Below are positions 14,560 through 37,458 of a stretch of 59,018 bases of DNA, piece by piece (within the stretch, counting starts at the first letter, position 1; every line of letters begins with the position of its first letter). The notes beneath the pieces are model-generated. The model ran no database searches, had not been told where the DNA came from, and saw only the letters and a program-made list of their open reading frames with translations. A program made the translations under genes and the position numbers. This stretch comes from an uncultured Methanosarcinales archaeon (GTDB lineage: Archaea > Nanobdellota > Nanobdellia > Woesearchaeales > DSVV01), in NCBI GenBank assembly GCA_964593285.1, contig CAZQHZ010000007.1, positions 1-59,018 on the forward strand. The letters run 5' to 3'.

Positions 14560-16326
14560 TTATTGTATTTTTATTTTATTAATTTCTTCTTTTAAATTTT
14601 CAGAACCTTTTTTTAATTCTTGTGCAATTATTGTTAATTCTTGCATTGAAGCTGTAGTTTCTTGAATAGATGCACTCATTTCTTCTGCGCCTGCAGCACT
14701 CTCTTCAGCAACAGCACTAACATCAGCAATTGATTTATCAATTGTTGATATAAAATCTTCTTCAGTTTCAGCAAGTTTTTCAATACTTGTTGTTTGTTTA
14801 TCAATATTGCTAATAATTGCAGAAATTCCTTCAAGTGAAACTAAAGCATCTCCAATAACTTTGCTTCCTTGTTCGACATCATTTGTTCCATTTTTTATTG
14901 TATTTACTGCATTATTTGTTGAATTTTGAATATCAGAAATTAAATTTGAAATATTTTGTGTTGCTTTTTGGCTTTCTTCTGCCAATTTTCTAATTTCATC
15001 AGCAACAACGCTAAATCCTTTTCCAGCTTCACCAGCTCTAGCAGCTTCAATAGTTGCATTTAATGCAAGTAAATTAGTTTGTTCTGATATATTATTGATA
15101 ACATCTATTATTTTCCCAATTTCTTGGCTTTTTTGACCAAGTAAATCTATATTAGATGATGTTTCATTAAATATATTTTTTATTTTTGTAATATTCTCAT
15201 TTGCAATCCCTGCAGATTCTTTTCCTTTTTGTGCATTTTTATTTGCAAGGCCAGAAGATTCTGAAACTGTTTTTATTTCTATAACTTCTTTTTTTAAATG
15301 TTCATTTAAATTTCTAATAATTTCAGCAGTTTTATTAACTTCTCTTGATTGTGTTTGGGCACCTTTAGCAATTTCTTGAATAGTTGCTGAAATTTGTTCT
15401 GTTGCAGAGCTTGTCTCTTCAGAAGAATTCATTAATTTTGCAGATGTTTTATCAACAATTAAAAAATTATCATTGATTTTGGTTATTAAATTTTTTGTTG
15501 AATTAACTACTTTATTGTATGCATCAACTAGATATTTAATTTCATTATTTCCACTTGCATTAATATTTAATTTATAGGTATAATCTTGTTCTGAAAGTTT
15601 TTTAAAAGCAGTAGTTATTTTTTCAATAGGGTTAGTTATTAAATTTGTTACAAAAGTAATTAAAAAAATTAAAATTAAAATAACTATTCCAGTAATAGAA
15701 AATAAAACAATTAAAGCAAAATTAATTTCTTTTGAAATAATTTGATTAACTCTTTCTTGCTCAATACCAACAAAATAAATTCCAATTATTTCATTATTTT
15801 TATTAAATATAGGTTCATATATTGTTAAATGAGAAACATCTAAAATATATGCTTGTCCAATATAAACATTACCATTAATCATATCTTGGTATGCAGCACT
15901 ATTTTTTCCAAGGTATGTCCCAATAGCTCTTTCATTGTTTTCTAATCGAATGCTTGTAATTATTCTTTTAAAATCGTCATTTTCTTTTACAAAAATGGTT
16001 CCAACTATTCCTAATTCACGACTTATAGTATCAATAGCATCATAACGATTTTCAATACTCTTATTATTTTTATCAATTAATTTTCCGTCATGATAATTTA
16101 ATTCGCCAAATTCTCCTCTCATGTATTCTTTAAATGAAAATAAATCTCCATGTAATTTTGTATCTAAAATTTCATTAGAAGTATTTTCTGCTAAATTTTT
16201 CATTCTATTAACACTAACAATTGTTAAAACAGTAGATAAAATTATAATACATAGCAAGGTAACAACTAATATTTTGTTCTTTATTTTCATTTCATTAAAA
16301 CTTTTAAAAAAATTCAAAAAATTCAC
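14560..16326 (-). CDS. Methyl-accepting chemotaxis protein with extracellular Cache-like sensor and HAMP domain (exact start uncertain)
   Basis: TM-sensor-TM-HAMP; signalling tip [38 protein letters not shown]; sensor TIFV..RIITS..GTYL..Y.G.A.IL resembles Cache 3/2. Confidence 0.95.
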
Positions 16327-16330
16327 CTAT

Positions 16331-16522
16331 TTAACTGTATTTATTATATAAAGATTCAAGTTTTTGTTGTGCTAAGCCCTCACCAAGTAACGATGCAAGC
16401 ATTTGTTTGCATTGATCTAGAAAATTTTTTGGATCAGAATCAGAAAAACCATCAATTTTATCAGCACTTGCTGCACCAAGAATTGATGTTATTACATTTT
16501 TTGCATCTTCTTTTACTCCTAT
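16331..16522 (-). CDS. Small helical protein, paralog of 24589-24780 (63 aa from probable ATA start; track start GTG at 16531)
   Basis: Shares LGAASADKIDGFSD.DPK.FLDQCK.ML..LG..LA.QKL..LY with its paralog; ends 4 nt before the MCP start. Confidence 0.8.
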   Translation of the reverse strand: MGVKEDAKNVITSILGAASADKIDGFSDSDPKNFLDQCKQMLASLLGEGLAQQKLESLYNKYS

Positions 16523-16574
16523 TTTAACCACCGTTTTTTATTATATAGTATTAAATTAAATATATATATAATTA

Positions 16575-17051
16575 TTAAGTATTAAAACTATTTGTATTTA
16601 AATAATTTTGTAGTTCTTTATGAATAGTATCATATATTTTTCCCATGTTTTTTTGAATTTCGTTACTTAATTTTTCACCAAAATCCATATTTTTTGGTTT
16701 AATTAAATAAAAAAATATTTTGGTCTTTTTATTCATTTTTTTTATTTTATTTTTTATTTCATTAAATGCAATATTATGTGATGAGTAATTATCACTATTA
16801 AATTTTATTTCATTGATTTCTTTTTTAATAAATTCTCCATAATTTAAATCAATCATTGCACAATCAATTATATAAATGATTTCATATTCTTCAATGTAGC
16901 CTAAAATATCCATACTACTTGCAGAATAATAGCAATCAACCAATTTGTTATTTTTAAATTCATTTTCTAATTTTTCTGTAATTATTAATCCTACAGCATC
17001 ATCATTTCTAATTAAACTACCATATCCAATTATTGCTATTTTTTTTTCCAT
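16575..17051 (-). CDS. Hydrogenase maturation endopeptidase (HybD/HycI family)
   Basis: IIGYGSLIRNDDAVG, IIDC and SSH motifs; D.GEKLS C-terminal pattern; hyp context. Confidence 0.88.
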   Translation of the reverse strand: MEKKIAIIGYGSLIRNDDAVGLIITEKLENEFKNNKLVDCYYSASSMDILGYIEEYEIIYIIDCAMIDLNYGEFIKKEINEIKFNSDNYSSHNIAFNEIKNKIKKMNKKTKIFFYLIKPKNMDFGEKLSNEIQKNMGKIYDTIHKELQNYLNTNSFNT

Positions 17052-17256
17052 TTTTAAAATTAATATTTTATTTTAATTTCTTTTTAATAAATATTACTAT
17101 TTANNNNNNNNNNNNNNNNNNNNNNNNNNNNNNNNNNNNNNNNNNNNNNNNNNNNNNNNNNNNNNNNNNNNNNNNNNNNNNNNNNNNNNNNNNNNNNNNN
17201 NNNTAAATATTACTATTTAATAAATTTTATATATTAATAAATTTTCTATTTATTTT

Positions 17257-17475
17257 ATGTGTTTAGCAATACCTGCAAAAATTATTGAAATTAATAAAGA
17301 TAATTCTGCTAAAGTAGATTATGGTGGAGTAAAAAAACAAATAAGACTTGATTTAGTTGATGTAAAAGTTAATGATTATGTTTTAATTCATGCAGGATTT
17401 GCTATAGAAAAAATGGATAAAAAAACCGCACTTAAAACAATTAAAGATATTAATAAATTAATTTTAAATGATTAA
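17257..17475 (+). CDS. hypC: Hydrogenase assembly chaperone HypC
   Basis: MCLAIP start; DYVLIHAGFAI. Confidence 0.97.
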   Translation: MCLAIPAKIIEINKDNSAKVDYGGVKKQIRLDLVDVKVNDYVLIHAGFAIEKMDKKTALKTIKDINKLILND

Positions 17476-17530: not shown

Positions 17531-18592
17531 ATGAAAAATGCATATTGGGATCAAAATTTATATTTAAATAAAAATGATCTAATTAAAGAAATAAAAAAAA
17601 TAGCATCAACAATAAAAAAAGATGTTAATTTTATGGAAGTTTGTGGTGGTCATACTTATTCTATAATTAAATTTGGTATAAAGGAAATATTGCCTAAAAA
17701 TGTAAATTTAATTTCAGGTCCAGGCTGTCCTGTTTGTATAACTTCAGCTAACGATATAGATTCAATAATTGAAATTGCAAAATCAAATGTTCCAATTGCA
17801 ACTTATGCTGATATGTTAAGGGTTAAAGGATCAAAATATTCTCTTGAAGACATAAAATCTAAAGGAGCAATTATTAAAACAATTTATTCAACTTCTGAAT
17901 TAATTGAATTAAAAAAACACTATCCAAATATTGTTTTTTTTGCAATTGGTTTTGAAACAACAATTCCAATGACAACATTTGTTTTACAAAATAATATACC
18001 TGTCTTTTCATCACACAAAGCATTACTTCCTGGGCTTAGAGCATTAATTGATGAAAAATTAAATATTGATGGATTTATTCTTCCAGGACATGTTTGCAGT
18101 GTTATTGGGTATAAAGATTTTAAATCATTAAATATATATCAAGCGGTTTCTGGTTTTGAAGCTGAGCATTTATTAAGGTCTATTTATGCATTGCTTGTTT
18201 TAATCAAAAACGAAAAAAAAGATGTTGTTAATACATATTTTGAGGTTGTAAAAAAAGAAGGAAACATTAAAGCAAAAAAATTAATTAACAAACATTTTAT
18301 ATTAAATGATTCAAATTGGAGAGGAATTGGAGTTATTTCAAATTCAGGATATGAAGTAATGAATAATAAATTAAATGCAAAAGTTATTTATAAAGATAAA
18401 TTAAAAAATATACAAACAGAAAAAAAATCATTATGTAGATGTGGTGAAGTATTAAAAGGAATTATTAGTCCATTAAAATGCCCTTTATTCTCAAAAAGAT
18501 GTACACCTAATAATCCAATTGGTGCATGTATGGTTAGTAGTGAGGGTTCATGTAATATTTATTATTTATTTAATGAACAAAGAAATAATTAA
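17531..18592 (+). CDS. hypD: Hydrogenase formation protein HypD
   Basis: MEVCGGHT, GPGCPVC, GFETT, PGHV and C-terminal Fe-S cysteines CRC..CPLF..CTP..GACMVSSEGSC. Confidence 0.96.
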   Translation: MKNAYWDQNLYLNKNDLIKEIKKIASTIKKDVNFMEVCGGHTYSIIKFGIKEILPKNVNLISGPGCPVCITSANDIDSIIEIAKSNVPIATYADMLRVKGSKYSLEDIKSKGAIIKTIYSTSELIELKKHYPNIVFFAIGFETTIPMTTFVLQNNIPVFSSHKALLPGLRALIDEKLNIDGFILPGHVCSVIGYKDFKSLNIYQAVSGFEAEHLLRSIYALLVLIKNEKKDVVNTYFEVVKKEGNIKAKKLINKHFILNDSNWRGIGVISNSGYEVMNNKLNAKVIYKDKLKNIQTEKKSLCRCGEVLKGIISPLKCPLFSKRCTPNNPIGACMVSSEGSCNIYYLFNEQRNN

Positions 18593-18614: not shown

Positions 18615-19919
18615 TTAATTTATTTTAAATCTTTCTAAACTTTTTTTGTTTTCATCACTTATTTTTGCTAATTCTTGTGCCATTGTAGATACTCGTTGCA
18701 TTGCAGCTGTGGTTTCTTCCATAGATGCACTAACTTCCTCTCCACCTGCAGCATTTTCTTGTGCAAAAGTACTAACTTCACTAATAGATTTTTTAACATT
18801 TTCAGTTAATTCAACTTGATTTGTTGTTTTTGAAACAATATCTTTTATTTGTTGATTCATGTTGTTAATAATTGCAGAAATTCCTTCAAGTGAAACTAAC
18901 GCTTCATTAATAATTGTTGCACCTTCATCGACTTCTTTATTACCACTAGTTATTGAATTAACTGCATTGTTTGTTGAATTTTGAATATCTGAAATTAAAT
19001 TAGTAATATGTTGTGTTGCTTTTTGTGATTCTTCTGCTAATTTTCTAATTTCATCAGCAACAACGCTAAATCCTTTTCCAGCTTCACCAGCTCTTGCAGC
19101 TTCAATAGTTGCATTTAATGCAAGTAAATTAGTTTGTTCAGATATATTATTGATAACATCAACTATTTTTCCAATTTCTTGACCCTTTTGTCCAAGATCT
19201 GAAATGACATTAGAAGCACTACCAACGGTAGTTTTAATTGCTTTTATTTTGTTATTAGCATTTCCTGCAGCGGTTCTACCTTTAGATGCATTATTATTAG
19301 CAATATCAGCGGATTGTGCTAATGAATTTACACTCTCAGATACTTTTTTAATGGTTTCATTTAATTCTGTCATCATTTTTGATGTTTCAGCAACTAAACT
19401 AGATTGATTTTCAGAACCTTTTGCAATTTGTTGCATGGTTGATGAAACTTGTTCTGCAGAAGCATTAACCTCTTCACTTGAAGAAGATAAATCTTGTGCA
19501 CTATTACTAATTGTAGAATTATTTTCATTAGTTTTTGTTATAACTTCTTTAATATTTTTTGAAATTAAATTTAAAGATCTTGATAATTCTTCTATTTGAT
19601 CATTTGTTTTAATTTCATTCATTTCTTTAGTTAAATCTCCTTTACTTATTGTATTTGCAAAATCAACACATTTTTTAAGGGGATTTGAAATGTCTTTTTG
19701 AACATAAAAGCCGATTGCTATTGCAATTGCTAAGGCAATAATTGATGAAATTATTGTGATATAAGTTGCATTAAAAAAATGCATTCCAATAAATTGTATT
19801 ATTAATGCAAAAATTGTTACAACAAAAAAACCCAAAATAATTTTTAATTCAATATTTATTTTTTTTAATTCATTTGTTTTATTATTTTTTTTTAATTCTT
19901 CAGTGTTTTGTTCAGACAT
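18615..19919 (-). CDS. Methyl-accepting chemotaxis protein lacking an extracellular sensor domain
   Basis: Two adjacent TM helices with a very short loop, HAMP, conserved signalling tip; GGAG SD upstream. Confidence 0.95.
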
Positions 19920-20860: not shown

Positions 20861-21667
20861 ATGATTAATTCATGCAAAGAAAGATTTTTAGAAGATAACA
20901 ATGATGCATTATCAAAAAAAATTAAAACTATTTATAGAAAATTATTTTATAATCAAAAAAATGATGATGTAGTTTTTAACCAAATAAATAAATTAGAAAA
21001 ATTATTATTGGACATTAATTTTTCAAAAAATGATGAAAGAAAAATTTTAAATTTTTCATTAAATACTAATATGGTTCCTTTTTTTCAAAAAATTTATGAA
21101 AAACATGAAACAAATCTTGAAAATAAATTTGCTGAAAAAATTTTATTAAATTCTAAAGAAAAAATATCAAATTATCATTTATATAATAGATTTAATACAT
21201 TAATACAAAATGAAATTAAATTAGCAAATATAAGTTCAAAAGATAATCTTTTATTTATTGGCTCAGGTTCATTTCCAATATCTGCAATATTATTTGAAAA
21301 TTATCTAAATTGTAATATTTCTTGTTATGACAAAAATCTAGTGGCTGTAAAAAAATCAAAAGAAGTATTAAAAAAAATGAACCTTGATGAAAAAATAAAT
21401 GTGTATAATAAAGATGGTTGTAATTTAAATGAAAATAATTATGATGTTATTGTTTTAGCACTACTTTCAAAACCAAAAAAAGAATTATTACATAAAATAA
21501 AGCCATTATTAAATTATGATACTAAATTAATATGTAGAACAAGTGATGTTTTAAGAGAATTTTTTTATGAAAAAACACCAATAGAAGAACTTAAAAAATA
21601 TAATGTTGTAGATAAAACTTATGCTAAATATAATCAAACAATATCATCTATTTTACTAAAAAAATAA
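20861..21667 (+). CDS. Nicotianamine synthase-like SAM-dependent aminobutyryl transferase
   Basis: ETNLE..FA, Y.RF..LI.NE, LFIGSGSFPISA, YDVIVLALL..PK, CRT..LREFFY motifs of the NAS/CntL family. Confidence 0.8.
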   Translation: MINSCKERFLEDNNDALSKKIKTIYRKLFYNQKNDDVVFNQINKLEKLLLDINFSKNDERKILNFSLNTNMVPFFQKIYEKHETNLENKFAEKILLNSKEKISNYHLYNRFNTLIQNEIKLANISSKDNLLFIGSGSFPISAILFENYLNCNISCYDKNLVAVKKSKEVLKKMNLDEKINVYNKDGCNLNENNYDVIVLALLSKPKKELLHKIKPLLNYDTKLICRTSDVLREFFYEKTPIEELKKYNVVDKTYAKYNQTISSILLKK

Positions 21668-21819
21668 AAATTTATATTGGATTGTAATGTTTTAAAAAAT
21701 AAAAACTTTCAAAAGGTTTAATAACTTAAAAATTTAAAAACTTTAAAAAATTAATTAACTAAAAATTTAAAATAAAGATATTTTTTATAAATTTTAAATA
21801 AATTATTAAGGTGGTTTTA

Positions 21820-22581
21820 ATGTGTAATGAATGTGGTTGTGATGAAAAATTAGAAAATAGTATTGAGAATAATAAATTTGATATAAAAGAGGAATCAAAT
21901 AATAATAACGAGATAAAAATTGAAAAAAATATTTTAGATGAAAACGATTTAATTGCTGATAAAATTAATCACGAATTTATACATAAAGAAATTTTGTGTG
22001 TAAATATATTAGGTTCGCCTGGAAGTGGAAAGACAACTTTTATTGAAAATATTTCAAAATACTTAGGTTCAGATAAAATTTTTGTTATTCAAGGTGATTT
22101 AGAATCAGATGTTGATAAAATTAGGCTTGAAAAACAAAATATTAAAACATTTCAAATAAATACGCATTCAGGTTGCCATTTAAATTCTGAAATGATTTTT
22201 GATGCATTAAAAAAAATAAATTTAGAGGGCATTAATTATTTGTTTATTGAAAATATTGGAAATTTAGTTTGTCCAGCAAATATTAAATTGGGTCAAGAAA
22301 TAGACATAATAATAAGTTCAACTACTGAAGGATCAGATAAACCAAAAAAATATCCAATTATTTTTAATAATGCAGATGCAATATTAATTTCAAAGATGGA
22401 TTTAGCAAAACATGTTGAATTCAATGAACAAGAATATGTAAGTGATTTAAAACAAATAAATAATAAAGGAGAAATATTTTATGTAAGTTCAAAAAAAGAA
22501 GATTCCTTTAGAAAAGTAGCTGATTTTTTTAAAAAAAATTTAGATAAATTAAAAGAAAAATCAAAAAAACACAACCATTAA
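21820..22581 (+). CDS. hypB: Hydrogenase nickel incorporation GTPase HypB
   Basis: MCNECGC N-terminus, GSPGSGKTT, GCHL, ENIGNLVCPA, EGSDKPKKYP; the track GTG at 21811 is probably part of the SD. Confidence 0.96.
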   Translation: MCNECGCDEKLENSIENNKFDIKEESNNNNEIKIEKNILDENDLIADKINHEFIHKEILCVNILGSPGSGKTTFIENISKYLGSDKIFVIQGDLESDVDKIRLEKQNIKTFQINTHSGCHLNSEMIFDALKKINLEGINYLFIENIGNLVCPANIKLGQEIDIIISSTTEGSDKPKKYPIIFNNADAILISKMDLAKHVEFNEQEYVSDLKQINNKGEIFYVSSKKEDSFRKVADFFKKNLDKLKEKSKKHNH

Positions 22582-22624
22582 TTATTTTTTTATTTTATTA
22601 AAAAAAATAAATAAATAATAAAAA

Positions 22625-23641
22625 TTAACAAATTCGTGGAACAATTCTTCCAGTTGGGTTATTTAAAATTTTTGTTCCAAGTTCTGTTTTTATTATAATT
22701 TTATTATCTTTTGTTACTTCACCGATAATTGAAGCCATTTTATTATATTTTTTTAATATGGATAAAGTTTTGGTGGAATTTTTTTTATTGCAAACACAAA
22801 TAAATCTTCCTTCACATGCAAGTTCATAAACATTTAATCCAAGCATTTCACATACAATTTTTACTTCCTTTTTAACAGGTATATTTTCTTCATTTAAAAC
22901 CATCCCTATTTTATTTTTTTCACATAATTCATTTAATGTTGAAGCAATTCCTCCTCTTGTTGCATCTTTTGCTTGTTTTATTAAACTATTAATTTCTAAC
23001 AATTCATTAATTAATGCTTTAGAATCCGTAATAATTGAAGTTTCAAAATCAAGTCTTTTTGATAAAAGAGCAATAGAATGCTCCCCAATCCCACCAGATA
23101 AAATTATTTTATCTCCAATTTTTAATTCATTATTTAAAATATTTTTATTATTTGCAATTCCAATTCCAGAAGTATTAATGATTATTTTATCAAGACTTTT
23201 TTTTTCAACAACTTTTGTATCTCCAGTAACTATTGGAATTTTAAATTTTTTAGATAATTTTGAAATTGAATTAATTATTTTTTTTAAATCATTTTTCAAA
23301 AAACCTTCTTCAATAATAATTCCTAAACTCAAACCAATTGGTTTTGCACCCATAACTGATAAATCATTTACAGTTCCACAAAATGCAATATCACCAATAT
23401 TTCCTCCTGGGAAAAAAATTGGTGAAATAGTATATGAATCTGTTGTAAAAACAACGTTTTTATTATTACCAATATTAATATATGCAGAATCTTCATCATA
23501 TCCTTGCCATTTATTTTTAAAGTTTCCTAAATTTTTTCTTATAGATGAAATCAGAAATTGCATCTCTTTTCCACCTGAACCTTCAGTTAATGAAACAAAT
23601 TCATCTTTTTGATAATCAATATTATTTGTGTTTTTTTTCAT
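22625..23641 (-). CDS. hypE: Carbamoyl dehydratase HypE
   Basis: GSGG, TTDSY..PIFFPGGNIG, GTVNDL, DATRGG, C-terminal PRIC. Confidence 0.97.
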   Translation of the reverse strand: MKKNTNNIDYQKDEFVSLTEGSGGKEMQFLISSIRKNLGNFKNKWQGYDEDSAYINIGNNKNVVFTTDSYTISPIFFPGGNIGDIAFCGTVNDLSVMGAKPIGLSLGIIIEEGFLKNDLKKIINSISKLSKKFKIPIVTGDTKVVEKKSLDKIIINTSGIGIANNKNILNNELKIGDKIILSGGIGEHSIALLSKRLDFETSIITDSKALINELLEINSLIKQAKDATRGGIASTLNELCEKNKIGMVLNEENIPVKKEVKIVCEMLGLNVYELACEGRFICVCNKKNSTKTLSILKKYNKMASIIGEVTKDNKIIIKTELGTKILNNPTGRIVPRIC

Positions 23642-23669
23642 TTTTAATTATTACTTTATAATTTTCGTT

Positions 23670-24107
23670 TTAATGAGGGTGTATATGTTCTTTTTTATTT
23701 TTATTTAATTGGCTTGTTAAAGTTAATTTACCATGTTCAACACCTTTAGTTGCAAGTATTTTTTTTGATAATTCTTCAATTTCTTTATTTTTTCCTTCTA
23801 AAATTAACACTTCCATACAACTTGTATGGTCAACATGTATATGTAAAGTACTTTTTACAACATCATAATGATGCTGTAGATGTGTTAAATGTCTTTGTAT
23901 GTCCTTATGATCATGATCATAAATAAAAGTTAATGTACCAATACAATTAGAATTTGGATCATTTATTTTTTGTTCTATTAAATAATTTCTTATTAAATCC
24001 CTTATTGCTTGTGAACGGTTATTATAGCCATGTTTTTTAATAATTTTATCAAATTCTTTTAATTGATTAGGTTCAAATGCAATACTTTTTCTATTTATTT
24101 TTTCCAT
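23670..24107 (-). CDS. nikR: Nickel-responsive regulator NikR
   Basis: RHH N-terminus (NRSQAIRDLIR), YDH, QHH and HIHVDHTSCME nickel-ligand motif. Confidence 0.93.
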   Translation of the reverse strand: MEKINRKSIAFEPNQLKEFDKIIKKHGYNNRSQAIRDLIRNYLIEQKINDPNSNCIGTLTFIYDHDHKDIQRHLTHLQHHYDVVKSTLHIHVDHTSCMEVLILEGKNKEIEELSKKILATKGVEHGKLTLTSQLNKNKKEHIHPH

Positions 24108-27878: not shown

Positions 27879-28238
27879 ATGCCAGATATATTAGTAGTGG
27901 ATGATTCAATTTTTATTAGAAATATTCTAAAAGATATGTTACATAGATTGGGTTTTACAAGTCTTGATGAGGCATCTGATGGTCTTGAAGCAGTAGAAAA
28001 AACAAAATCAGGAGAATATAAATTAATTTTTATGGATATAATGATGCCAAGAATGGATGGTCTTCAAGCAATAAAAGAAATCCGAGCATTAAATCCAGAA
28101 CAACAAATTGTAATTTGTACTTCTGCAGGTCAAGAAAAAATAGTAAATGAAGCTGTAAGCAGTGGAGCTAAAGAATTAGTCTTAAAACCCTTTGATTTAG
28201 TTGAAATTAAGCAAATTGTTGAAAAATATTTAATGTAA
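27879..28238 (+). CDS. cheY: Second CheY
   Basis: ILVVDDS, MDIMMP, CTSAGQ, KPF. Confidence 0.92.
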   Translation: MPDILVVDDSIFIRNILKDMLHRLGFTSLDEASDGLEAVEKTKSGEYKLIFMDIMMPRMDGLQAIKEIRALNPEQQIVICTSAGQEKIVNEAVSSGAKELVLKPFDLVEIKQIVEKYLM

Positions 28239-28271
28239 TTTTAATGTTTTAAATCAATTTTGGTGTTTTAA

Positions 28272-29300
28272 ATGATAAATTTATTGATTGTTGATGATTC
28301 AGCATTAATTAGAAAAATAATTAAAGCGAGTCTTGAGGATGTAGAAGGTATTAATGTGGTTGGCTATGCAGTTGATGGTGAAGATGCATTAAAAAAAATA
28401 AGTAAATTAAAACCAGATATTGTAACTTTAGATATGAATATGCCAAAAGTTAATGGTCTTGAAGTTTTACGAGAAACTTTTGATAAAAAACCAATTCCTT
28501 TTTTGATAATTAGTTCAGAGCCTAGTAAGGATTCAAAAGAAACACTTCTTGCACTAGAAGAAGGTGCAGTAGATTTTATTTTAAAACCAAAAAACATTAC
28601 AAATAAAGAAAATTTAGATTATTTTAAAAGTATTTTACTTGATAAAATTTATTTAGCAATAAAATCAAAACCTCATGTTTTTCATCCAATTAAAAAAAAA
28701 GTAGTTCATAAATTTAGCTCAAAAATAAAAAAAATTTTAATTATTGGGGCATCAACAGGAGGTCCTTCAACGATTTCTAAATTATTTTCAGAACTACCAC
28801 CAAATTTATCATTCCCTATTTTAATTGTTCAACATATGCCAGAAGGATTTACGAAATATTTTGCACAAAGACTTAATTTAATTTCACAATTTGATGTAAA
28901 AGAAGCAGAAAATGATGAATTAATTTCAAACAATGTTGCATATATTTGTCCTTCAGATTATCATATGGAAATTTATTTAGATGAAAATAATTTATATAAA
29001 ATAAAATTGCAAAAAGGTGAAAAATTAAATCATGTTAGGCCAAGTATTGATGTTTTATCAAAAAGCGTTGCGCATTTATTTAAAAAAAATGCATTGTTAT
29101 TAATTTTAACCGGAATGGGCAAAGATGGAACTGATGGTGCAAGAAGTATAAAAAAACATGGCGGAATAGTAATTACTCAAAATAAAGAATCATCTATTTT
29201 ATTTGGTATGCCAAAATCAATTATTGATAATAACTTAGCAGATCAAATTATTGATCTTTCAAAAATGTCTGTTTTAGTAATTAAAAAATTGGATGGATAA
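28272..29300 (+). CDS. cheB: Chemotaxis methylesterase CheB
   Basis: Receiver domain plus GASTGGP, VQHMP, RPSID, LTGMGKDG, FGMP. Confidence 0.96.
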   Translation: MINLLIVDDSALIRKIIKASLEDVEGINVVGYAVDGEDALKKISKLKPDIVTLDMNMPKVNGLEVLRETFDKKPIPFLIISSEPSKDSKETLLALEEGAVDFILKPKNITNKENLDYFKSILLDKIYLAIKSKPHVFHPIKKKVVHKFSSKIKKILIIGASTGGPSTISKLFSELPPNLSFPILIVQHMPEGFTKYFAQRLNLISQFDVKEAENDELISNNVAYICPSDYHMEIYLDENNLYKIKLQKGEKLNHVRPSIDVLSKSVAHLFKKNALLLILTGMGKDGTDGARSIKKHGGIVITQNKESSILFGMPKSIIDNNLADQIIDLSKMSVLVIKKLDG

Positions 29301-29302
29301 AA

Positions 29303-29677
29303 ATGAATATGGACGAATTTAAAGAATTGTTTATAGAAGAAGCAAAAAAAAGTATAACTGAAATTGAAAATAATTTAATTTTATTAAAAGAAAATTATGA
29401 TGAAAATGTTATGTTAAATTTAAAAAGACAATTTCATACATTGAAGGGAAATTCTGCTTCAATGGGATATGATAATTTTTTTGAATTATCAAAATCATTA
29501 AATGATCTATCATGCCAGGTTATTGATAAAAAGTTAGAATTTAATTTAGAATTACTTACTTTATTTGATAGTGCAAAAAATGTACTCTTAGATGCATTAG
29601 ATGAAATAAAAAATGATAATTTAACAAATTTTAATGATAATGGATTAACAAAAAAAATACAAAATATGCTTTATTAA
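29303..29677 (+). CDS. Stand-alone Hpt (CheA P1-like) protein
   Basis: FIEEA..RQFHTLKGNSASMGY; own stop codon; cheA retains its own P1. Confidence 0.88.
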   Translation: MNMDEFKELFIEEAKKSITEIENNLILLKENYDENVMLNLKRQFHTLKGNSASMGYDNFFELSKSLNDLSCQVIDKKLEFNLELLTLFDSAKNVLLDALDEIKNDNLTNFNDNGLTKKIQNMLY

Positions 29678-29694
29678 TTTTAAATAATAAAAAA

Positions 29695-31674
29695 ATGGAG
29701 ATAACCCAATACAAGGAACAATTTGTTTCAGAATCAAGAGAACATATAGATTTATTAAATGAATCTATTTTAATTTTAGAAAAAGAACCCCAAAATTTAG
29801 ATGTAATTAATAAATTATTTCGTTCATTTCATACATTAAAAGGAAATTCTGCAACAATGGGTTATAACAAATTTTCTGAATTATCTCATCATTTAGAAGA
29901 TATTTTAGATAAAGCACGTTCAAAACAAATTGTTTTAAATTCAGATTTAATAGATGTTTTATTTAAAGGTATAGATCTTTTAGAAAATGGTCTTGATTTA
30001 ATTTTAGATGATAAATCAGAAGAGTTAGAAATAAAAGAGATTACTTTAGATGTTGAAAATATTATTTCATCCATATCATCAGATGGCGTAGCTTCTGATG
30101 CAAACAAAAAAAAAAATGAAAATAAATTAACAAAAGATGAAATTGAAAAATTAAAAAAATTAGAAAAAGAAAATAAAATTTTTGAAATTATTATTTTTTT
30201 TGATAAAGATAACGCATTAAAAGGTGCTAAATCTTTAATTATTTTACGAGATTTAAATTCTTATTCAACTATTATTAAATCTTTTCCAGCAAAAGATAAA
30301 TTATTATCAAAAGAATTAGATGACGAATTGAAAATAATAATTTCAACTAAAAAAGAAAAAGAGTTTATTGAAAAAAATTTTAAAGAAATTTCTGGAATTT
30401 CATCATATAAAATAAATGATTTTAAATTAAATGAATTTATTAATGAAGAAAACGAAAAAAATAAAGATTTTTTAAAAGAAAACGATAAAGCAAAAATTGC
30501 AAAAATACAGCAAGATGCAATGAATAAACAAATTCAAAGTGTTAAAATTGATATAAAAAGTTTAGATAATTTAATGAATCTTGTTGGAGAACTTCTTATT
30601 AGTAAAATAAGACTTGAACAAATTTCAAAAAATTATGATGATAAAATTCTAAAAGGAATTATTAATAATTTAACAAGATTAACTGTTGATATTCAAGATC
30701 AAGTAATGAAACAGCGAATGATACCTATTGGAAATATTTTTAATAGGTTTCCAAGAATGGTTAGGGATTTAGCAAAAAAAGAAAAAAAAAAAGTTGAATT
30801 AATAATTAAAGGACAAGATATAGAGTTTGATAGAACAATATTAGATGAAATAGGCGATCCATTAGTTCATTTGCTAAGAAATTGTATTGACCATGGTATT
30901 GAAATGCCTGAGGAGAGAGAAAAATTATCTAAAGATGCTCAAGGGACAGTAAAATTAGTAGCAAGGAAAGAACAAAATAATGCAATTATTGAAATTTTTG
31001 ATGATGGACAAGGAATAGATCCAATAAAAGTTAAGGAAAGTTGTATAAAAAAAGGAGTAATTTCAAGAGAAGAAGCTGATTCAATGGATGAAAAAGCCTT
31101 AATTAAATTGATTTTTAGACCAGGAATTAGTACAAACACTGTGATTACTGAAGTTTCAGGCAGAGGTGTTGGTATGGATGTTGTAGAAACAAAGATTAAA
31201 TCACTAGGTGGAAATGTAAAAGTTGATTCTACAGTTGGAAAAGGAACAACAGTTAAAATTCAGTTACCTCTAACACTTGCAATTATTAATTCTCTTTTAG
31301 TTCAAGTTGATAATCAAAGATATGCAATTCCATTATCTGGAATTAATAGAACAGTTAAATTAAAACATGAATCAATTAAAACAATACAAGGTAATGAAAT
31401 TTTTTTATTAATGAATAAAGATGTACCTTTAGTTTGGCTTTCAAAAATATTACATGGTAGTAAGCAAAAAAAAACAGATACATATACTGTTGTGGTTGTT
31501 GAAAAAGATGATTCTAAAATTGGTTTAGTTGTTGATTCTATTTTATCACAGCAACAAATTTTAATAAAAAGTTTAGATGATATAATTAAAGGAATAAATG
31601 GCCTTGGTGGTGCAACTATATTAGGTGATGGAAAAGTTGCAGTTATTTTAGATGTTGGAACACTTTTTGATTAA
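29695..31674 (+). CDS. cheA: Chemotaxis histidine kinase CheA
   Basis: FRSFHTLKG (P1), P2, LDNLMNLVGEL, HLLRNCIDHG, DDGQG, SGRGVGMDVV, C-terminal CheW domain. Confidence 0.97.
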   Translation: MEITQYKEQFVSESREHIDLLNESILILEKEPQNLDVINKLFRSFHTLKGNSATMGYNKFSELSHHLEDILDKARSKQIVLNSDLIDVLFKGIDLLENGLDLILDDKSEELEIKEITLDVENIISSISSDGVASDANKKKNENKLTKDEIEKLKKLEKENKIFEIIIFFDKDNALKGAKSLIILRDLNSYSTIIKSFPAKDKLLSKELDDELKIIISTKKEKEFIEKNFKEISGISSYKINDFKLNEFINEENEKNKDFLKENDKAKIAKIQQDAMNKQIQSVKIDIKSLDNLMNLVGELLISKIRLEQISKNYDDKILKGIINNLTRLTVDIQDQVMKQRMIPIGNIFNRFPRMVRDLAKKEKKKVELIIKGQDIEFDRTILDEIGDPLVHLLRNCIDHGIEMPEEREKLSKDAQGTVKLVARKEQNNAIIEIFDDGQGIDPIKVKESCIKKGVISREEADSMDEKALIKLIFRPGISTNTVITEVSGRGVGMDVVETKIKSLGGNVKVDSTVGKGTTVKIQLPLTLAIINSLLVQVDNQRYAIPLSGINRTVKLKHESIKTIQGNEIFLLMNKDVPLVWLSKILHGSKQKKTDTYTVVVVEKDDSKIGLVVDSILSQQQILIKSLDDIIKGINGLGGATILGDGKVAVILDVGTLFD

Positions 31675-31691
31675 ACATGTGAGGGATTAAA

Positions 31692-32360
31692 ATGATAAAA
31701 AAAACTAATAAAAAAATTATAAAGAAAAGTAAAAAAACTACAAATAAATTATCAAATTTACAAATTGATGCTTTAAGAGAGATTAGTAGTATCACTTCAG
31801 GTAATGCAACAAGTGCATTAGCAAAATTAATTAATAAAAGAGTAAAAATAAATATTCCAAAAGCAGAATTTTTAACAATAAAGGAATTAACTAATGAACT
31901 TGGTGGAAAAGATAAGATGGTTATGTCAATTTATGTAACCGTTTTAAGTGAAGTTACAGGGCAAGCAATTTTTTTATTTTCAAGAAAATCAGCTTTAAAA
32001 ATGATTGATTTAGTTTTAAAAAAAGATATAGGAAAAACTAAAGTTTTAGATCATTTATCAGAATCTGCTTTTGGTGAGATGGCTAATATTTTTGTTGGAA
32101 CATATCTTAATGCATTATCAAACATGTTTAAATTAACAATCCTTCCAGGAATTCCTGTTGTTGCAAATGATTACGTAGGACCTATATTAGAATATGTAAT
32201 GGGACGAATTACAAACCCTGAAAAAAAAACATTATGTTTTGAAACAAAAATCAATATTGATGGAAATGATGTTTCAGGAGATTTTATTTTTATGTTTGAT
32301 GAAAAATCATATAGTTTAATTTTAAAAAAATTAAAAGATAATTATGATATTACTTTTTAA
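31692..32360 (+). CDS. cheC: CheC family phosphatase (first active-site Asn replaced by Ser)
   Basis: DALREISSI..GNA and SAFGEMANI..P motifs. Confidence 0.9.
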   Translation: MIKKTNKKIIKKSKKTTNKLSNLQIDALREISSITSGNATSALAKLINKRVKINIPKAEFLTIKELTNELGGKDKMVMSIYVTVLSEVTGQAIFLFSRKSALKMIDLVLKKDIGKTKVLDHLSESAFGEMANIFVGTYLNALSNMFKLTILPGIPVVANDYVGPILEYVMGRITNPEKKTLCFETKINIDGNDVSGDFIFMFDEKSYSLILKKLKDNYDITF

Positions 32361-32511
32361 TTTAGTATATATAAAAAAAAATTGCTATCATAAAAATTGT
32401 TTATTTATAAATTAAGAAGGGAAAAAAATATAAATAGAAGTATAAAAAAGATATAAATATATAATTTATAATTTATGTTAGATTAATTAAAAAATAAAAA
32501 GGTTTTATAAA

Positions 32512-33147
32512 ATGGAAGAACATTATTCTTTATCAACTGATGAATTAGAAGCATTAAAGGAACTTGGAAATATAGGTATTGGAAATGCAGCAATTGCGTT
32601 GTCAAAAATTTTAGATAAAAAAGTTAATATGAGTATTCCTGATACTTCATTTATACCAATTACCACTTTTTCGGATCATTTTGGTGGACCAGATTCAATT
32701 GTAATGACAATTTTTTCACCAATTTTAGGAGAATTATCAGGTGAAACATTATTTATTTTTTCACAACAATCAGGGAAAGGTTTAGTTGATTTAATGATGG
32801 GAAATGAACCAGGTAATACTGTAAATGAATTAGATGAAATGGGTGAATCTGCTTTTAAGGAGATGGCTAATATTTTTGTTGGAACATATCTTAATGCAAT
32901 TTCAGATATGATGAATATTAAACTTCTTCCAGGAGTTCCAATTGTTGCAACAGATATGGTTGAATCAATTCTCAACATTTTTTTATTAAAAAATGGTGAA
33001 TATGCTGATAATATTTTATGTAGTAAAGCAAATATAAGTATAGATGGACATAAAGTAGATGGTGATTTCATTTTTTTATTTGATTTAGAATCATTGCAAA
33101 AAATTGTTAAAAAAATAAAAGAATCATATGGTGATTTGGTTAATTAG
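32512..33147 (+). CDS. cheC: CheC phosphatase
   Basis: EALKELGNIG.GNA and SAFKEMANI..P motifs. Confidence 0.93.
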   Translation: MEEHYSLSTDELEALKELGNIGIGNAAIALSKILDKKVNMSIPDTSFIPITTFSDHFGGPDSIVMTIFSPILGELSGETLFIFSQQSGKGLVDLMMGNEPGNTVNELDEMGESAFKEMANIFVGTYLNAISDMMNIKLLPGVPIVATDMVESILNIFLLKNGEYADNILCSKANISIDGHKVDGDFIFLFDLESLQKIVKKIKESYGDLVN

Positions 33148-33992
33148 TGAATATGGATGAAGAAATTGTAATTGGAATGGGTAAACTTGTTGTTGTAAAT
33201 CAACCTGCCATTTTATCAGGTATAGGGCTTGGTTCCTGTGTTGGTTTAATGCTTTATGATAGTGTAAAAAAAGTTAGCGGAATGGCACATATAATGCTTC
33301 CAGATAGTCAAAAAGCAAAATTTTTAGAAACAAAACATACTTCAATTATTGCTGATGATGAAGAATTTACAACTAAAACTTTTAAAAATTCACTAATCGA
33401 AAAAGAATATGAAATATCTGCAATCACAAATACTGTTGAAGATACTTTATCTAAGTTTAAAGAATTGAGCCCTTTTTTAACATTAATTAGCTCATCTTTT
33501 TCTCAAGATTCATTAAATAAATTACTTGAGGATATTTTTTTAATTAATAAAACTGCTAATGTAGTTATAGCTGAAAAAAATAGTAAAGATTTTTATATTC
33601 CATATTTGGTTAAAGGTGTTATTGATGTAATTACTCCACCAATTTATAAAAAAAAAATTGATTTTTCTCTAGATTTTGTAAATAATCAAAGATATTTTAG
33701 GTTTGCCGATATTGCAATAAATAAAATGCTAGATAAAATGTATTCTTTTGGTTGTAGTAAAGAAAATATTAAAGCAAAAGTAGTTGGTGGTGCTCATATG
33801 TTTTCACATTGCCAGGTAAAAATTAGAAATATTGGTGAAGAAAATTCAAAAAAAGTAATTGAAATTTTAAATGATTTAAAAGTACCAATTGTACAAAAAG
33901 TAGTTGGTGGTGATGTTGGTAGAACCGTTAAATTTAATACGTCTGATTACAGTGTAAAAATAACTTCTAAAGAAGGAGAAATAACTTTATAA
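33147..33992 (+). CDS. cheD: Chemoreceptor glutamine deamidase CheD with inserted degenerate receiver domain
   Basis: GLGSCVG, GMAHIMLP, FAD, AKVVGGAHMF, IGEEN, GG..GRT; about 120-aa insert between LPDS and RFAD. Confidence 0.9.
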   Translation: MNMDEEIVIGMGKLVVVNQPAILSGIGLGSCVGLMLYDSVKKVSGMAHIMLPDSQKAKFLETKHTSIIADDEEFTTKTFKNSLIEKEYEISAITNTVEDTLSKFKELSPFLTLISSSFSQDSLNKLLEDIFLINKTANVVIAEKNSKDFYIPYLVKGVIDVITPPIYKKKIDFSLDFVNNQRYFRFADIAINKMLDKMYSFGCSKENIKAKVVGGAHMFSHCQVKIRNIGEENSKKVIEILNDLKVPIVQKVVGGDVGRTVKFNTSDYSVKITSKEGEITL

Positions 33993-34002: not shown

Positions 34003-34857
34003 ATGGTAAATCAGGAAAATTTTATTTCAAATGTTAATATTGTTGATGAAGATAAATGGCTTATTTTAAAAGAAACTATAAAAAAAGAATTAAATTTTCA
34101 AGTAAATAATTATAGAGATAATTATTTAAAAAGGCGTGTTGAATGTAGATTAAGAATTTTAAATTTAAATTCATATATTGATTATGTTAATTTATTAGTA
34201 ACTGATGAAGCAGAAAAAAAAAAATTAAATAAAGAATTAACTATTCATGTAACACATTTTTTTAGAGATAAAAGTCTTTATCAAGAAATTCAAGATTGGA
34301 TAATTCCCCAAATAATTAAAGAAAAACAAGAAAAAAATTTATATAAAATAAGGATTTGGTCAGCTGGTTGTTCTGTTGGTGCAGAACCTTATTCAATAGC
34401 TATTATTTTAAGAGAAGTTTTGGGTAATAGTATTAATAAATTTGAAATTAAAATTGATGCAAGTGATGTTGATCAAGAAACTATAAGTAAAGCAATACTT
34501 GGAATATATGATTTACAATATTTTACTGAAACCTCGCCATTAATACAAACTAAATATTTTCAAAAAATTAATGATGATTTATATTCAGTATTACCTATAG
34601 TGAAATCAATGGTTAATTTTAAAATACAAGATATATTCGATGAATCATCAATAATGAAGTACGATCTTATATTTTGTAGAAACACTGTAATTTATTTTGA
34701 TAAACAGGCAAAAGTTGATTTATATGAAAGCATTTATAGTAAATTAAATAAAGGTGGTTTTTTAGTTTTGGGTAAATCTGAATTTTTAGATAATACCGCA
34801 AGGACAAAATTTATCGTTTATAATAATAATGAAAGAATTTATAGAAAACCTTTTTAA
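34003..34857 (+). CDS. cheR: Chemotaxis methyltransferase CheR
   Basis: TIHVTHFFRD, IWSAGCSVGAEPYS, DLIFCRNTVIYFD, LGKSE. Confidence 0.96.
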   Translation: MVNQENFISNVNIVDEDKWLILKETIKKELNFQVNNYRDNYLKRRVECRLRILNLNSYIDYVNLLVTDEAEKKKLNKELTIHVTHFFRDKSLYQEIQDWIIPQIIKEKQEKNLYKIRIWSAGCSVGAEPYSIAIILREVLGNSINKFEIKIDASDVDQETISKAILGIYDLQYFTETSPLIQTKYFQKINDDLYSVLPIVKSMVNFKIQDIFDESSIMKYDLIFCRNTVIYFDKQAKVDLYESIYSKLNKGGFLVLGKSEFLDNTARTKFIVYNNNERIYRKPF

Positions 34858-35005: not shown

Positions 35006-35731
35006 ATGGAATATAAAAATAATAATTCAGATGAATCTTTAGATACTAAAAAAAAATATTCAGAAAGGCAATTAGTTGTTTTTTCTTTAGGAAATGAAGA
35101 ATTTGGTGTTGATATTAATGAAGTAAATAGTATTATTAAATTAGAGCCAATTACTAAAATTCCAAATTCATTTAATTTTATAGAAGGAGTTATAAATCTT
35201 AGAGGAAAAATTGTTGTTATTATTAATTTGGCAAGAAAACTTGGTTTACCAACAAAAGAAAATGATAAAGATACAAGAATAATCATTATTGAAACTAAAG
35301 ATCAAAACAATAAAGAAACAATGATTGGAATGATTGTTGATCACTCAAGAGAAGCAATTAGATTATCTGAAGATCAAATAGAGCCTGCACCACCATTAAT
35401 TACACAAAGAATAAAGATGGATTATTTAGAGGGCGTTGGAATTATTGAAAATCGATTATTAATTTTACTTGACTTAGCAAAAGTTTTATGTGATAATGAA
35501 ATTACTAATGTACAAAATTTATCAAAAATATCAAAAGATAATAATTTAAATATTGAAAATGATAAAAAACAAAATGATATAAATGAATTAGCTAATAAAA
35601 ATGAAAATACTAGTGAAAATAAATTAGAAAAAGATAATAAAGTTAATGAAGAGAATAAAGAAAATAGCGATGTAAAAAAAGATACAAGTACAAAAGTTAA
35701 AGAAAATAATGATGTAAAAAATACAAATTAA
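35006..35731 (+). CDS. cheW: CheW with low-complexity N/K/E/D C-terminal tail
   Basis: QLVVFSLGNEEFGV, EGVINLRGKIV, GMIVD, RLLILLD. Confidence 0.95.
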   Translation: MEYKNNNSDESLDTKKKYSERQLVVFSLGNEEFGVDINEVNSIIKLEPITKIPNSFNFIEGVINLRGKIVVIINLARKLGLPTKENDKDTRIIIIETKDQNNKETMIGMIVDHSREAIRLSEDQIEPAPPLITQRIKMDYLEGVGIIENRLLILLDLAKVLCDNEITNVQNLSKISKDNNLNIENDKKQNDINELANKNENTSENKLEKDNKVNEENKENSDVKKDTSTKVKENNDVKNTN

Positions 35732-35792
35732 AAAATTATTAAATCATAAAAATATTTATTTTATTAAGGATAAACAAAGAGGTGTTTTTTTT

Positions 35793-36194
35793 TTGAAAAT
35801 AAAAAATTGGATGAATAAAAATGTTAAAACAATTACAAAAAATGAAACTATTTTTAAAGCCACAAATATTATGAAAGAATCTTTTGTTGGACAATTAGTT
35901 GTAATTGAAAATTCATTTCCTATTGGTATTTTAACTGAAAGAGATATTTGCTATAAAGTTGTTTCATTAAATTTAGATCCAAAAAAAACACCTGTTGAAA
36001 AAATCATGACAAAAACATTAATTAAAGCACATATAAATGATACTATTTCTGAAATTTCAAGAAGAATGTCTCTTGCAAAAATAAAACAAATTCCAATAAT
36101 TGATGAAAATAATTCTTTAGTTGGAATTATTAGTTCAAGTGATTTAATAAGAATTGTTGCATCATTGCATAGAGATATTGATGGTATTAATTAA
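35793..36194 (+). CDS. CBS-domain pair protein
   Basis: GILTERDI, VEKIMT, LVGIISSSDL; GAGGTG SD before TTG. Confidence 0.9.
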   Translation: MKIKNWMNKNVKTITKNETIFKATNIMKESFVGQLVVIENSFPIGILTERDICYKVVSLNLDPKKTPVEKIMTKTLIKAHINDTISEISRRMSLAKIKQIPIIDENNSLVGIISSSDLIRIVASLHRDIDGIN

Positions 36195-36285
36195 TCTTTA
36201 TTGCTTTAATTTTATCATTAAAATTAATAAATTTATTTTTCATATTTAAATAAATTTAAATATTAACTAATATATATTATTTAGA

Positions 36286-37458
36286 ATGGATAATTTTAAA
36301 ACAATAATAACAGCATTTGCAAAACAAAGCCTTGGAGGGCTTGCAGGTGAATTATTATTAGATGATTATTGTAATAAATTTAATATAAAAAATCTTTCTT
36401 CATTAGATGAAATACAAAAAAAAAAGTTTATTAATGCTTTTATTTATGGTGTATTTCATAAACACATGTCAAAATCTAAAATAGATACTATAAGATTACA
36501 TGTTAATTTACTATTTTGTCTAGACAATGCAACTAAAAAAATATCAACAATGCTCAATAAAGATGTTTTTTTAAATCCATTAGACATGAAATATCAAACA
36601 TTTGAAAATTTTGAAAAAATTATTAATAATTTAGGTGATGGTGTTGTTGTTATTCCTGTCCATGTTACAGGTTATGTTTCTGCAACAATTTTGATTTTTA
36701 TTTATAGGGATAGTGCAATTTTACTTGGAAATATTATGCTAAAATCTATGCTTGGGATAGAAAAATCTGATGATTTTTTTGATGATATGAAACAATCAGC
36801 AATCCAAGAATTTTTTAATATTGTAATTCCAACATTTGCAGATACTATTGCAAATACATTAAATCAAGAAATATTTATTAATTTACCAGAAACAGAAATT
36901 ACAGATGTTCAAAAACAAATTGATTATGCATTTAGTAAATTTAATTTTGATGGTGATGAAAATTATGGTATAAAAAAAATAATGTCAACATCAATTGGTT
37001 TTGTTATTGATAAATCCAATACAATAAATGGAATGTGCTTTTTATTGCTCGAGTCTGAACCTGAAATTATTTATGATTCACTTGGAAAAAGCAATATTAA
37101 AATTGATGATACATTAGAATCTATGAATTTAGAAAAAATTGAACTTTTAAAAGATCCAAATAGATATAAAGTATTACTTGATTTTTTAATTAATTTTATT
37201 CCTGAAAATACAGGTATTATTATTGATAATTTGATGGAAGAATTAGGTATTTCAAGTTTAAATAATGTTTCTGTTGGTATTCGAAGACAATTTGTTAAAA
37301 AATTAATTAATGATTATTTTAGTAGTAATTCTAAAAAAATAGTTGATTTTATTCAAAATAATTGCGAAAAAATATTTAATATTGGAAGTAAAATAAAAGA
37401 AGATGATAATTTAAAGACAACTTCTGGAGTTGAAAATTTAATGAAAAAAAATAAATAA
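36286..37458 (+). CDS. CheC-like domain flanked by two related small helical domains
   Basis: Central NATKKISTML ... SAIQEFFNI..P CheC-like region; N- and C-terminal about 70-aa segments resemble each other. Confidence 0.7.
   Translation: MDNFKTIITAFAKQSLGGLAGELLLDDYCNKFNIKNLSSLDEIQKKKFINAFIYGVFHKHMSKSKIDTIRLHVNLLFCLDNATKKISTMLNKDVFLNPLDMKYQTFENFEKIINNLGDGVVVIPVHVTGYVSATILIFIYRDSAILLGNIMLKSMLGIEKSDDFFDDMKQSAIQEFFNIVIPTFADTIANTLNQEIFINLPETEITDVQKQIDYAFSKFNFDGDENYGIKKIMSTSIGFVIDKSNTINGMCFLLLESEPEIIYDSLGKSNIKIDDTLESMNLEKIELLKDPNRYKVLLDFLINFIPENTGIIIDNLMEELGISSLNNVSVGIRRQFVKKLINDYFSSNSKKIVDFIQNNCEKIFNIGSKIKEDDNLKTTSGVENLMKKNK

Follow-up and report, generated by a model that had tools for sequence, protein, structure and literature searches.

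A recurrent association of [NiFe] hydrogenase maturation genes with an archaeal chemotaxis cluster in Woesearchaeales

The window, that is positions 1–59,018 of contig CAZQHZ010000007.1 of a Woesearchaeales genome (G000, hereafter the source genome), carries at positions 14560–37458 a block in which the hydrogenase maturation genes hypA–F, a maturation protease gene, nikR, and two genes for methyl-accepting chemotaxis proteins (MCPs) stand together with an F1-like run of chemotaxis (che) genes. The genes were taken from the list of open reading frames (ORFs) and a Pfam scan, and each Pfam assignment in the locus lies above its cut-off unless noted otherwise. The association is real and recurs within the order; apart from one new component family its parts are known, their arrangement is new, and an adaptor to the motor was not found. 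These findings suggest, without proving it, that hydrogen or redox state guides the movement of the cells. In our judgement the case is evenly balanced for the reading that the locus encodes a CheF-less F1-like system whose input would be coupled to a cytoplasmic [NiFe] hydrogenase and which would serve H2 or redox (energy) taxis.

Linkage and co-occurrence of che and hyp genes

Both systems are present in 12 genomes of the order, which belong to nine families. In eight of these genomes and six of these families, a che or MCP gene is found at a distance of at most ~3 kb from a hyp or [NiFe] hydrogenase gene, and random placement under three models gave p values between 1e-6 and 0.011 for six linked families out of nine. 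In the source genome cheY and hypF are divergent neighbours. G295 has the order cheW–small gene–hydrogenase–…–hyp (the small gene is described below), G280 has cheD–hypF, and in G150 and G219 cheR and hypF adjoin and further MCPs are located at hyp or mvh genes. In G030 mvhA and an MCP gene are adjacent, and in G072 and G041 cheW lies ~2.8 kb from hypF. For G019, G160, G181, and G100, the loci that were fetched showed no che–hyp link. As the two MCPs of the locus are the only ones found in the source genome and as the linkage recurs in relatives, the block goes beyond chance. The first-pass annotation had proposed a coupled H2/Ni/redox-taxis locus and had suggested looking for the same synteny in relatives; the genes are not unlinked in all of them, and this recurrent linkage, together with a large hydrogenase subunit with a cleavable tail (see below), supports the proposal in part.

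With a total of 1.18 Mb on 38 contigs, the source genome has a completeness of 95.9% and a contamination of 0.12%. This low value, a GC content of the locus like that of the rest of the genome, and the nearest named homologues of CheA, which come from Nanobdellota/Woesearchaeota and then from Methanoperedens, rule out that the locus is a contaminant or a bacterial island. The earlier label of a DPANN-like archaeon is borne out by the same homologues. Three DNA runs titled microbial mat metagenome contain at least half of the sampled words of positions 22000–31900; with a possible source run excluded, two runs of one study contain 0.94 and 0.69 of them. No RNA run with this segment was listed, which has no bearing on expression.

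To quantify the co-occurrence, 301 genomes of the order were searched for HypD, CheB, MCP, and [FeFe] hydrogenase. HypD gave 28 matches, of which one below the cut-off was removed (27 genomes left), and CheB gave 25, of which three in frames of >1000 amino acids and four weak ones were removed (18 genomes left). Seventeen of these 18 genomes have an MCP, and CheA is present in 16 of 17 relatives. HypD occurs in 12 of the 18 che-bearing genomes vs 15 of the 283 others (odds ratio 36, with kin not being independent) and in 9 of 13 che-bearing families. When four genomes with CheA and MCP and without CheB are added, the counts are 12/22 vs 15/279. That hydrogenases as a whole are enriched in genomes with che genes is ruled out, as the [FeFe] hydrogenase, which served as control, shows none: it is found in 7 of the 18 che-bearing and 78 of the 283 other genomes (p 0.29; the 85 positives include the unpublished G130, G203, G205, and G207, which were used in this count only).

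Hydrogenases

As seen in the first-pass annotation, the window itself holds no hydrogenase subunit. The large subunit with a cleavable tail that had been predicted from the protease exists on another contig (C2) of the source genome, so that the hyp genes are not orphans. This [NiFe] large subunit has the motifs RSCGICPVSH and DPCLSCATH with intact L1/L2 cysteines, and 24 residues follow the second motif. Its nearest solved structures are 7t2r and 5odc, and the gene order on C2 is HdrA–MvhD fusion, MvhG, MvhA (L056:7834–12225). It is an Mvh-like, group 3c-like [NiFe] hydrogenase, which its intact motifs suggest to be active. With MvhA, MvhG, MvhD, HdrA, the L1/L2 cysteines, and the cleavable tail it resembles the MvhAGD–HdrABC complex of group 3c, from which it differs in that HdrB was not found: a search of the source genome gave no CCG-domain protein, and none was made for HdrC. 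The HdrA–MvhD protein on C2 is ~100 amino acids shorter than those of G219 and G030. In G219 the gene order is hypC, divergent protease, hdrA–mvhD, mvhG, mvhA, MCP, compared with hypC, divergent protease, small gene, MCP1 in our locus, which suggests that the mvh genes have left the spot between the protease and MCP1 in the source genome. In addition, a trimeric [FeFe] hydrogenase is encoded on contig C19; thus the costly [NiFe] system is not the only route of H2 turnover in this genome.

A second class of enzyme is found in relatives. A Huc-like large subunit of 503 amino acids is present in 6 of 11 relatives with both che and hyp genes and in none of the 15 genomes with hyp genes only. This enzyme is group 2a-like, its nearest structures being those of Huc (7uus/7utd); a tail is present, and neither an export signal nor a clear membrane helix is seen in the small subunit. 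A scan of a genome collection with the Huc-like family yielded 15 loci, six of them already contained in the order sample. Che genes lie in the fetched flanks of six of the 15 loci and of five of the nine new ones, one of which is titled Pacearchaeota (record title only), and a protease gene is present in 12 of the 15. Two unrelated [NiFe] classes are therefore linked to che genes, the Mvh-like class in the source genome and family f31 and the Huc-like class elsewhere.

Regulatory hydrogenases of group 2b have a large subunit without a cleaved tail. They are partnered with a histidine kinase (HydDB, PMC5037454). The enzymes described here differ from them, since the single [NiFe] enzyme of the source genome is Mvh-like and the Huc-like enzyme of the relatives has a tail. 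HydDB also lists a putative chemotactic [FeFe] group C2, in which the hydrogenase is linked to an MCP (PMC5037454). Our case is similar in that a hydrogenase is tied to an MCP as the proposed input of H2 taxis, and different in that the enzyme of the source genome is of the [NiFe] type, separate from the receptor and encoded on another contig. The C2 fusion architecture itself occurs in G206, a genome with che genes and without HypD, as a fusion of [FeFe]-hydrogenase domain and MCP with archaeal-type neighbours (L186:3794–5659). For Woesearchaeota, the accessible text of PMC8421398 reports only group 3b [NiFe] and A3 [FeFe] hydrogenases.

A small STAC-like protein

The new component is a family of small proteins, of which the source genome has three copies of 63–73 amino acids. 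Copy a (66 amino acids, 16331–16531, minus strand) ends 4 nt before MCP1, copy b (63 amino acids, 24589–24780, minus strand) has LGxxxA twice, and the third copy is located on contig C11 before a CheC-like gene, the start of which it overlaps (L093:1501–2375). A spurious ORF is ruled out by the third-position bias (1418 vs 462 and 419) and by the ribosome-binding sites.

Members of the family were found in 15 of the 301 genomes, namely in 11 of the 12 with both che and hyp genes, in none of the six with che only, in none of the 15 with hyp only, and in four others, two of which have CheA and MCP. The contrast is thus 11/12 vs 4/289, with the restriction that recall may be biased by the seeding of the profile, for which 11 window-like sequences and a single one from G019 were used. 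Independent pairs gave 6.0 same and 0 opposite of 7 (median p 0.03). The gene most often found next to a small gene is that of the hydrogenase small subunit; in 12 of the 15 Huc-like loci the two are separated by 11–76 nt, with the small gene upstream. Of the 10 relatives that carry a short form of 54–57 amino acids, seven have a copy abutted by a receptor that ends with its HAMP domain. On a 25-kb contig of one named record, a close homologue lies 8 accessions away from CheA.

The predicted model has helices at residues 3–15, 17–23, 31–46, and 48–62, which form two hairpins (predicted local distance difference test, pLDDT, 90), and the consensus contains FGPxSA and LGxxxA with almost invariant G and A. 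STAC proteins such as Af1502 have been described as stand-alone four-helix proteins of ~60–90 residues with an LGPx(x)A motif, coupled to archaeal receptors that end at HAMP such as Af1503 (PMC4834066), and their role has been called elusive (PMC7918813). The small family fits this description, being small, stand-alone, and four-helical in the model, with an LGPx(x)A-like motif and, in relatives, copies next to receptors ending at HAMP. The differences are that it is linked to hydrogenase and che genes and not to solute transporters, and that the form in relatives is slightly short (54–57 amino acids) and has conserved cysteines. Af1502 is known to escape sequence searches (PMC4834066). A fold search with the model gave at best E 4.4 (Foldseek) and Z 5.9 (VIA), and 5A1Q was not among the matches listed. 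As no structural match to Af1502 was obtained, we call the protein STAC-like and not STAC.

Other searches gave little. A profile search of solved structures produced weak matches only, the best being the FliG N-terminal domain (E 0.024), the ESM Atlas returned only unnamed clusters, and 43 family members had no real match in NCBIfam. Metagenome scans gave no locus when run with the alignment of the small protein and one weak locus when run with CheA. A sequence link to STAC-bearing kinases was not found, nor was, by eye, a shared motif beyond the ribosome-binding site in 15 upstream stretches. Fused forms of the domain carry an ACT domain or an N-terminal domain without family assignment. The domain is also C-terminal in the longer proteins P0040, P0066, P0073, P0079, P0083, P0061, and P0064, one of which is named gammaproteobacterial.

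Receptors and proposed mechanism

According to Pfam and hydropathy, MCP1 (14560–16326, minus strand) consists of two transmembrane helices, an extracellular single Cache domain, HAMP, and the signalling domain. MCP2 (18615–19919, minus strand) has a transmembrane hairpin with a loop of 7 residues, HAMP, and the signalling domain, and no ligand-binding domain. It is 47% identical to the MCP encoded immediately after mvhA in G030, and G030, G150, G219, G041, and L211 have sensor-less hairpin MCPs at their hyp or hydrogenase loci. The layout of MCP2 is that of CetA of the bipartite energy-taxis receptor CetA/CetB (PMC2628428), namely transmembrane hairpin, HAMP, and signalling domain without sensor; by analogy, MCP2 would need a cytoplasmic input. 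A CetB-type PAS partner is not in the locus (a Pfam scan of its 27 proteins gave no PAS match), and here the candidate partner is the STAC-like protein. Many Woesearchaeales have Cache–HAMP receptors without output domain, mostly beside a small gene (L073, L080, L086, L089, L195, L208, L217). Such receptors could pair up with the sensor-less MCPs to form split receptors.

The activities expected from these genes might give a hint how a signal would be formed. The Hyp proteins, NikR, and the protease, all of which are present, would mature the single [NiFe] enzyme HdrA–MvhD/MvhG/MvhA. H2 turnover by this enzyme would then shift, by established chemistry, the state of the enzyme or the reductant pool of the cell. 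Gene context and topology suggest that the STAC-like protein relays this state to the HAMP domain of MCP2, whereas MCP1 would read an outside solute via its Cache domain. The STAC-like protein is considered the relay because its gene tracks both the che and the hyp system. The signal would be passed on by CheW, CheA, and CheY with adaptation by CheB, CheR, CheC, and CheD, the genes of which are intact, and the output without CheF would most likely involve the cheY–cheC–DUF835–KaiC block of contig C4 (see below), acting on pili or archaellin filaments.

More tentatively, and with clearly less confidence than in a hydrogenase-coupled input as such, we consider a hitherto undescribed pathway of H2 taxis in Woesearchaeales and at least one record titled Pacearchaeota, in which a Huc- or Mvh-like [NiFe] hydrogenase would be the sensor, the STAC-like protein would connect this sensor with receptors that are sensor-less or end at HAMP, and CheY would reach the filaments via CheC/KaiC without CheF. 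If true, a [NiFe] H2 receptor for archaeal taxis and a function of stand-alone STAC proteins would each be described for the first time, and archaeal chemotaxis would have a second wiring to the motor. H2 taxis has been shown in Methanococcus maripaludis, for which the accessible text names no receptor (PMC3817446), and for a role in H2 taxis HydDB lists, in its accessible part, only the putative [FeFe] class (PMC5037454). The locus family provides a short list of soluble, expressible candidate parts. In the literature searched, main texts only, a linkage of hyp or [NiFe] genes with che genes in DPANN is not described; loci of this kind may be found in the supplements of PMC8421398 and PMC13747009.

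Coupling or common inheritance

Several observations weigh against a signal from the hydrogenase to the receptors. HypD is missing in 6 of the 18 che-bearing genomes and CheB in 15 of the 27 HypD genomes, and independent pairs for che and hyp on the RNA polymerase tree described below gave 4.1 same and 0.3 opposite of 9 (median p 0.125), which has the same direction as the raw counts and is not significant. FlaC is above its cut-off in 7 of 17 che genomes; that it is also found in 6 of 15 hyp-only genomes and in none of 28 with neither system fits a broad lifestyle syndrome. The small gene is present in G077 and G167, which have neither CheA nor HypD, it adjoins unrelated genes in several loci, and none of the three copies of the source genome has a HAMP-only receptor beside it. 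Of the two invariant cysteines and a frequent third in relatives, the locus copies keep one. The hydrogenase subunits of the source genome lie outside the che–hyp cluster, and a canonical link to the motor was not found in this genome. Finally, in a tree of HypD/E from 24 of the 27 HypD genomes, 7 of the 12 che-linked sequences fall into one clade of 11 rows (support 91/94), so that much of the pattern may stem from one ancestral block.

Thus, a cluster of che, hyp, hydrogenase, and small genes, ancestral or transferred, may have been kept as a block by motile, more self-sufficient lineages and lost in pieces elsewhere; its regulation might be shared, and no signal would pass from the hydrogenase to the receptors. 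We hold this main alternative to be possible, though on balance improbable. Apart from the HypD/E clade, the FlaC distribution, and the result of the pairs, it is favoured by two arrangements which look like remnants of a decaying block: KaiC–DUF835–cheC–hypF in G294, where CheA and CheB were not found, and cheR followed by a hypF fragment in G274. In addition, G295, G019, G262, and G206 group together in the CheA tree and not in the RNA polymerase tree, which points to transfer within the order. On the RNA polymerase tree (57 hand-picked genomes, enriched for positives) the state with both systems needs 9 changes and is accordingly scattered. On the HypD/E tree che-linkage needs 6 changes vs 8.3 after shuffling, and 21 of 300 shuffles were as low. 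Nevertheless, a tree forcing all 12 che-linked sequences together was rejected (approximately unbiased test, p 0.006), which rules out a single unbroken che-linked hyp clade, although later loss of che genes could cause the same result. Furthermore, two hydrogenase classes are linked, the adjacent pairs differ among proteins that are only 40–60% identical, where simple hitchhiking should not keep linkage, and the small gene tracks the intersection of che and hyp and neither of them alone.

Chemotaxis output

The archaeal F1 core is present with CheA including P2, CheW, CheY, CheB, CheR, CheC, CheD, and MCPs, and from the gene set, the named homologues of CheA, and a small tree the run appears F1-like. 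It shares with euryarchaeal F1 systems the core and the adaptation genes, and the nearest named relatives of its CheA outside DPANN are from Methanoperedens. It differs by a stand-alone Hpt, an insert in CheD, the hyp genes in the cluster, and scattered archaellins, and in that CheF and ArlD/E were not found. The search for CheF covered the source genome (95.9% complete) and 18 relatives, with a control positive in 3 of 14 genomes; ArlD/E (PF04659) was not found in the source genome, where divergent forms are possible. Three ATPase systems, platform proteins, and a KaiC protein are candidates for ArlI, ArlJ, and ArlH, all below the NCBIfam cut-offs. Five archaellin genes are spread over three contigs, one of them beside a gene with a FlaC domain. 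Contig C4 carries on one strand the run cheY–cheC–DUF835–pilin–KaiC–pilins–ATPase–two platform genes (L054:4875–19131), and in G280 and G160 a KaiC–DUF835–cheC block abuts the che cluster. By this gene order, the cheY–cheC–DUF835–KaiC block is a candidate for a substitute of CheF.

The system might not serve swimming at all and instead control pilus assembly, attachment, or gene expression, possibly that of the hydrogenase, with the hyp genes as target or co-regulated partner. CheF and ArlD/E were not found, the ArlI/J/H candidates stay below their cut-offs, the cheY–cheC pair heads a type IV pilus run, the genome encodes at least 10 receiver proteins, and HxlR-like and NikR regulators are present in the clusters of relatives. 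On the other hand, a control of behaviour would agree with the full adaptation set of CheB, CheR, CheC, and CheD and with the five archaellin genes, one of which has a FlaC-domain neighbour, and the cluster of the locus has no DNA-binding response regulator. We regard such an output as unlikely; it concerns the output side only and would be compatible with a hydrogenase input.

It has been stated that DPANN lack chemotaxis (PMC9680633). Contrary to this statement, some DPANN with reduced genomes have retained a complete chemosensory system that lacks CheF, and this is relevant to the way in which they locate a niche or a partner in H2 gradients. Transcripts of CheABCD have been reported for one Woesearchaeota genome, and fla genes for most (PMC11606122). 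F1 systems and CheF-less Chloroflexota are covered in PMC13747009, and the word chemotaxis does not occur in the main text of PMC8421398 or in the accessible text of PMC11216029.

Nickel supply

Between hypD and hypB a gene for a protein similar to nicotianamine synthase and CntL is located (20861–21667, plus strand; PF03059 score 49.7 vs a cut-off of 27.1, CntL model 39.9 vs 350). It adjoins hypB, occurs in 2 of 241 same-order genomes, and is thus lineage-specific; a homolog search gave one relative with 46% identity and a scan of the genome collection none. The protein is possibly a synthase of a nickel metallophore, and as the nickel transporters NicO and CbiM were not found in the source genome, a metallophore route for nickel is possible. 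That nickel or its metallophore is sensed by the receptors or by the small protein, so that the cells move toward nickel for their hydrogenase, is very improbable. In its favour, nikR, hypA/B, and the synthase-like gene are located in the stretch bounded by the MCPs and the che run, copies of the small gene adjoin hypA/hypB in the source genome, G072, G160, and G219, and the negative search for NicO and CbiM would agree. Against it, the synthase-like gene is rare, the small gene has the hydrogenase small subunit and not a nickel gene as its most frequent neighbour, and the small proteins of the locus have no histidine and one cysteine.

Gene content of the locus

All genes named in the first-pass annotation were recovered by the ORF list and the Pfam scan in the same order and orientation. 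The hydrogenase maturation endopeptidase (HycI protease; PF01750, TIGR00072 above cut-off) is encoded at 16575–17051 on the minus strand. Between it and hypC lies a scaffold gap of ~100 N (~17104–17203), and the join of MCP1, the 66-amino-acid ORF, and the protease to the rest consequently depends on scaffolding. On the plus strand follow hypC (17257–17475) and hypD (17531–18592, motifs intact), and beyond MCP2 and the synthase-like gene hypB (21811–22581; Pfam and NCBIfam). The minus-strand run hypF–small gene b–hypA–nikR–hypE spans 27212–22625 and comprises hypF (24885–27212), hypA (24157–24510), nikR (23670–24107; Pfam and NCBIfam), and hypE (22625–23641), the last identified by AIRS/AIRS_C and 47–60% identity to genes at the HypE position in relatives.

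Divergent from hypF over 240 bp, the che run continues on the plus strand with two cheY genes (27453–28238), cheB (28272–29300), a stand-alone Hpt resembling CheA P1 with its His kept (29303–29677; Pfam, NCBIfam, and motifs), cheA with P1–P5 (29695–31674), two cheC genes (31692–33147), cheD (33147–33992), cheR (34003–34857), cheW (35006–35731), a CBS-pair protein (35793–36194), and a CheC/FliY-like protein of 390 amino acids with extra helical ends (36286–37458; NCBIfam below cut-off). A motif check found the catalytic motifs whole in CheA, both CheY, CheB, and HypD. The insert of ~120 amino acids in CheD, receiver-like by eye, is shared with G295, G041, G051, and, judged by length, G072, and in the locus copy the phospho-site aspartate looks lost. 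G206 and G019 have homologues of the CheC/FliY-like protein in their che clusters, and the extra ends of this protein weakly match the profile of the small protein (E 0.005 within the genome).

Elsewhere in the genome, an ORF of 6581 amino acids on contig C9 (23767–43512) probably encodes a surface protein. In the window, the last 57 codons of a nucleotidyltransferase gene (53192–54388) are repeated at 56869–57042, after a pilin-like gene of 749 amino acids (54476–56725); this repeat is either a short duplication or an assembly artefact. Glycosyltransferase and multi-membrane glycosylation genes are clustered at positions 56–10613 of the window.

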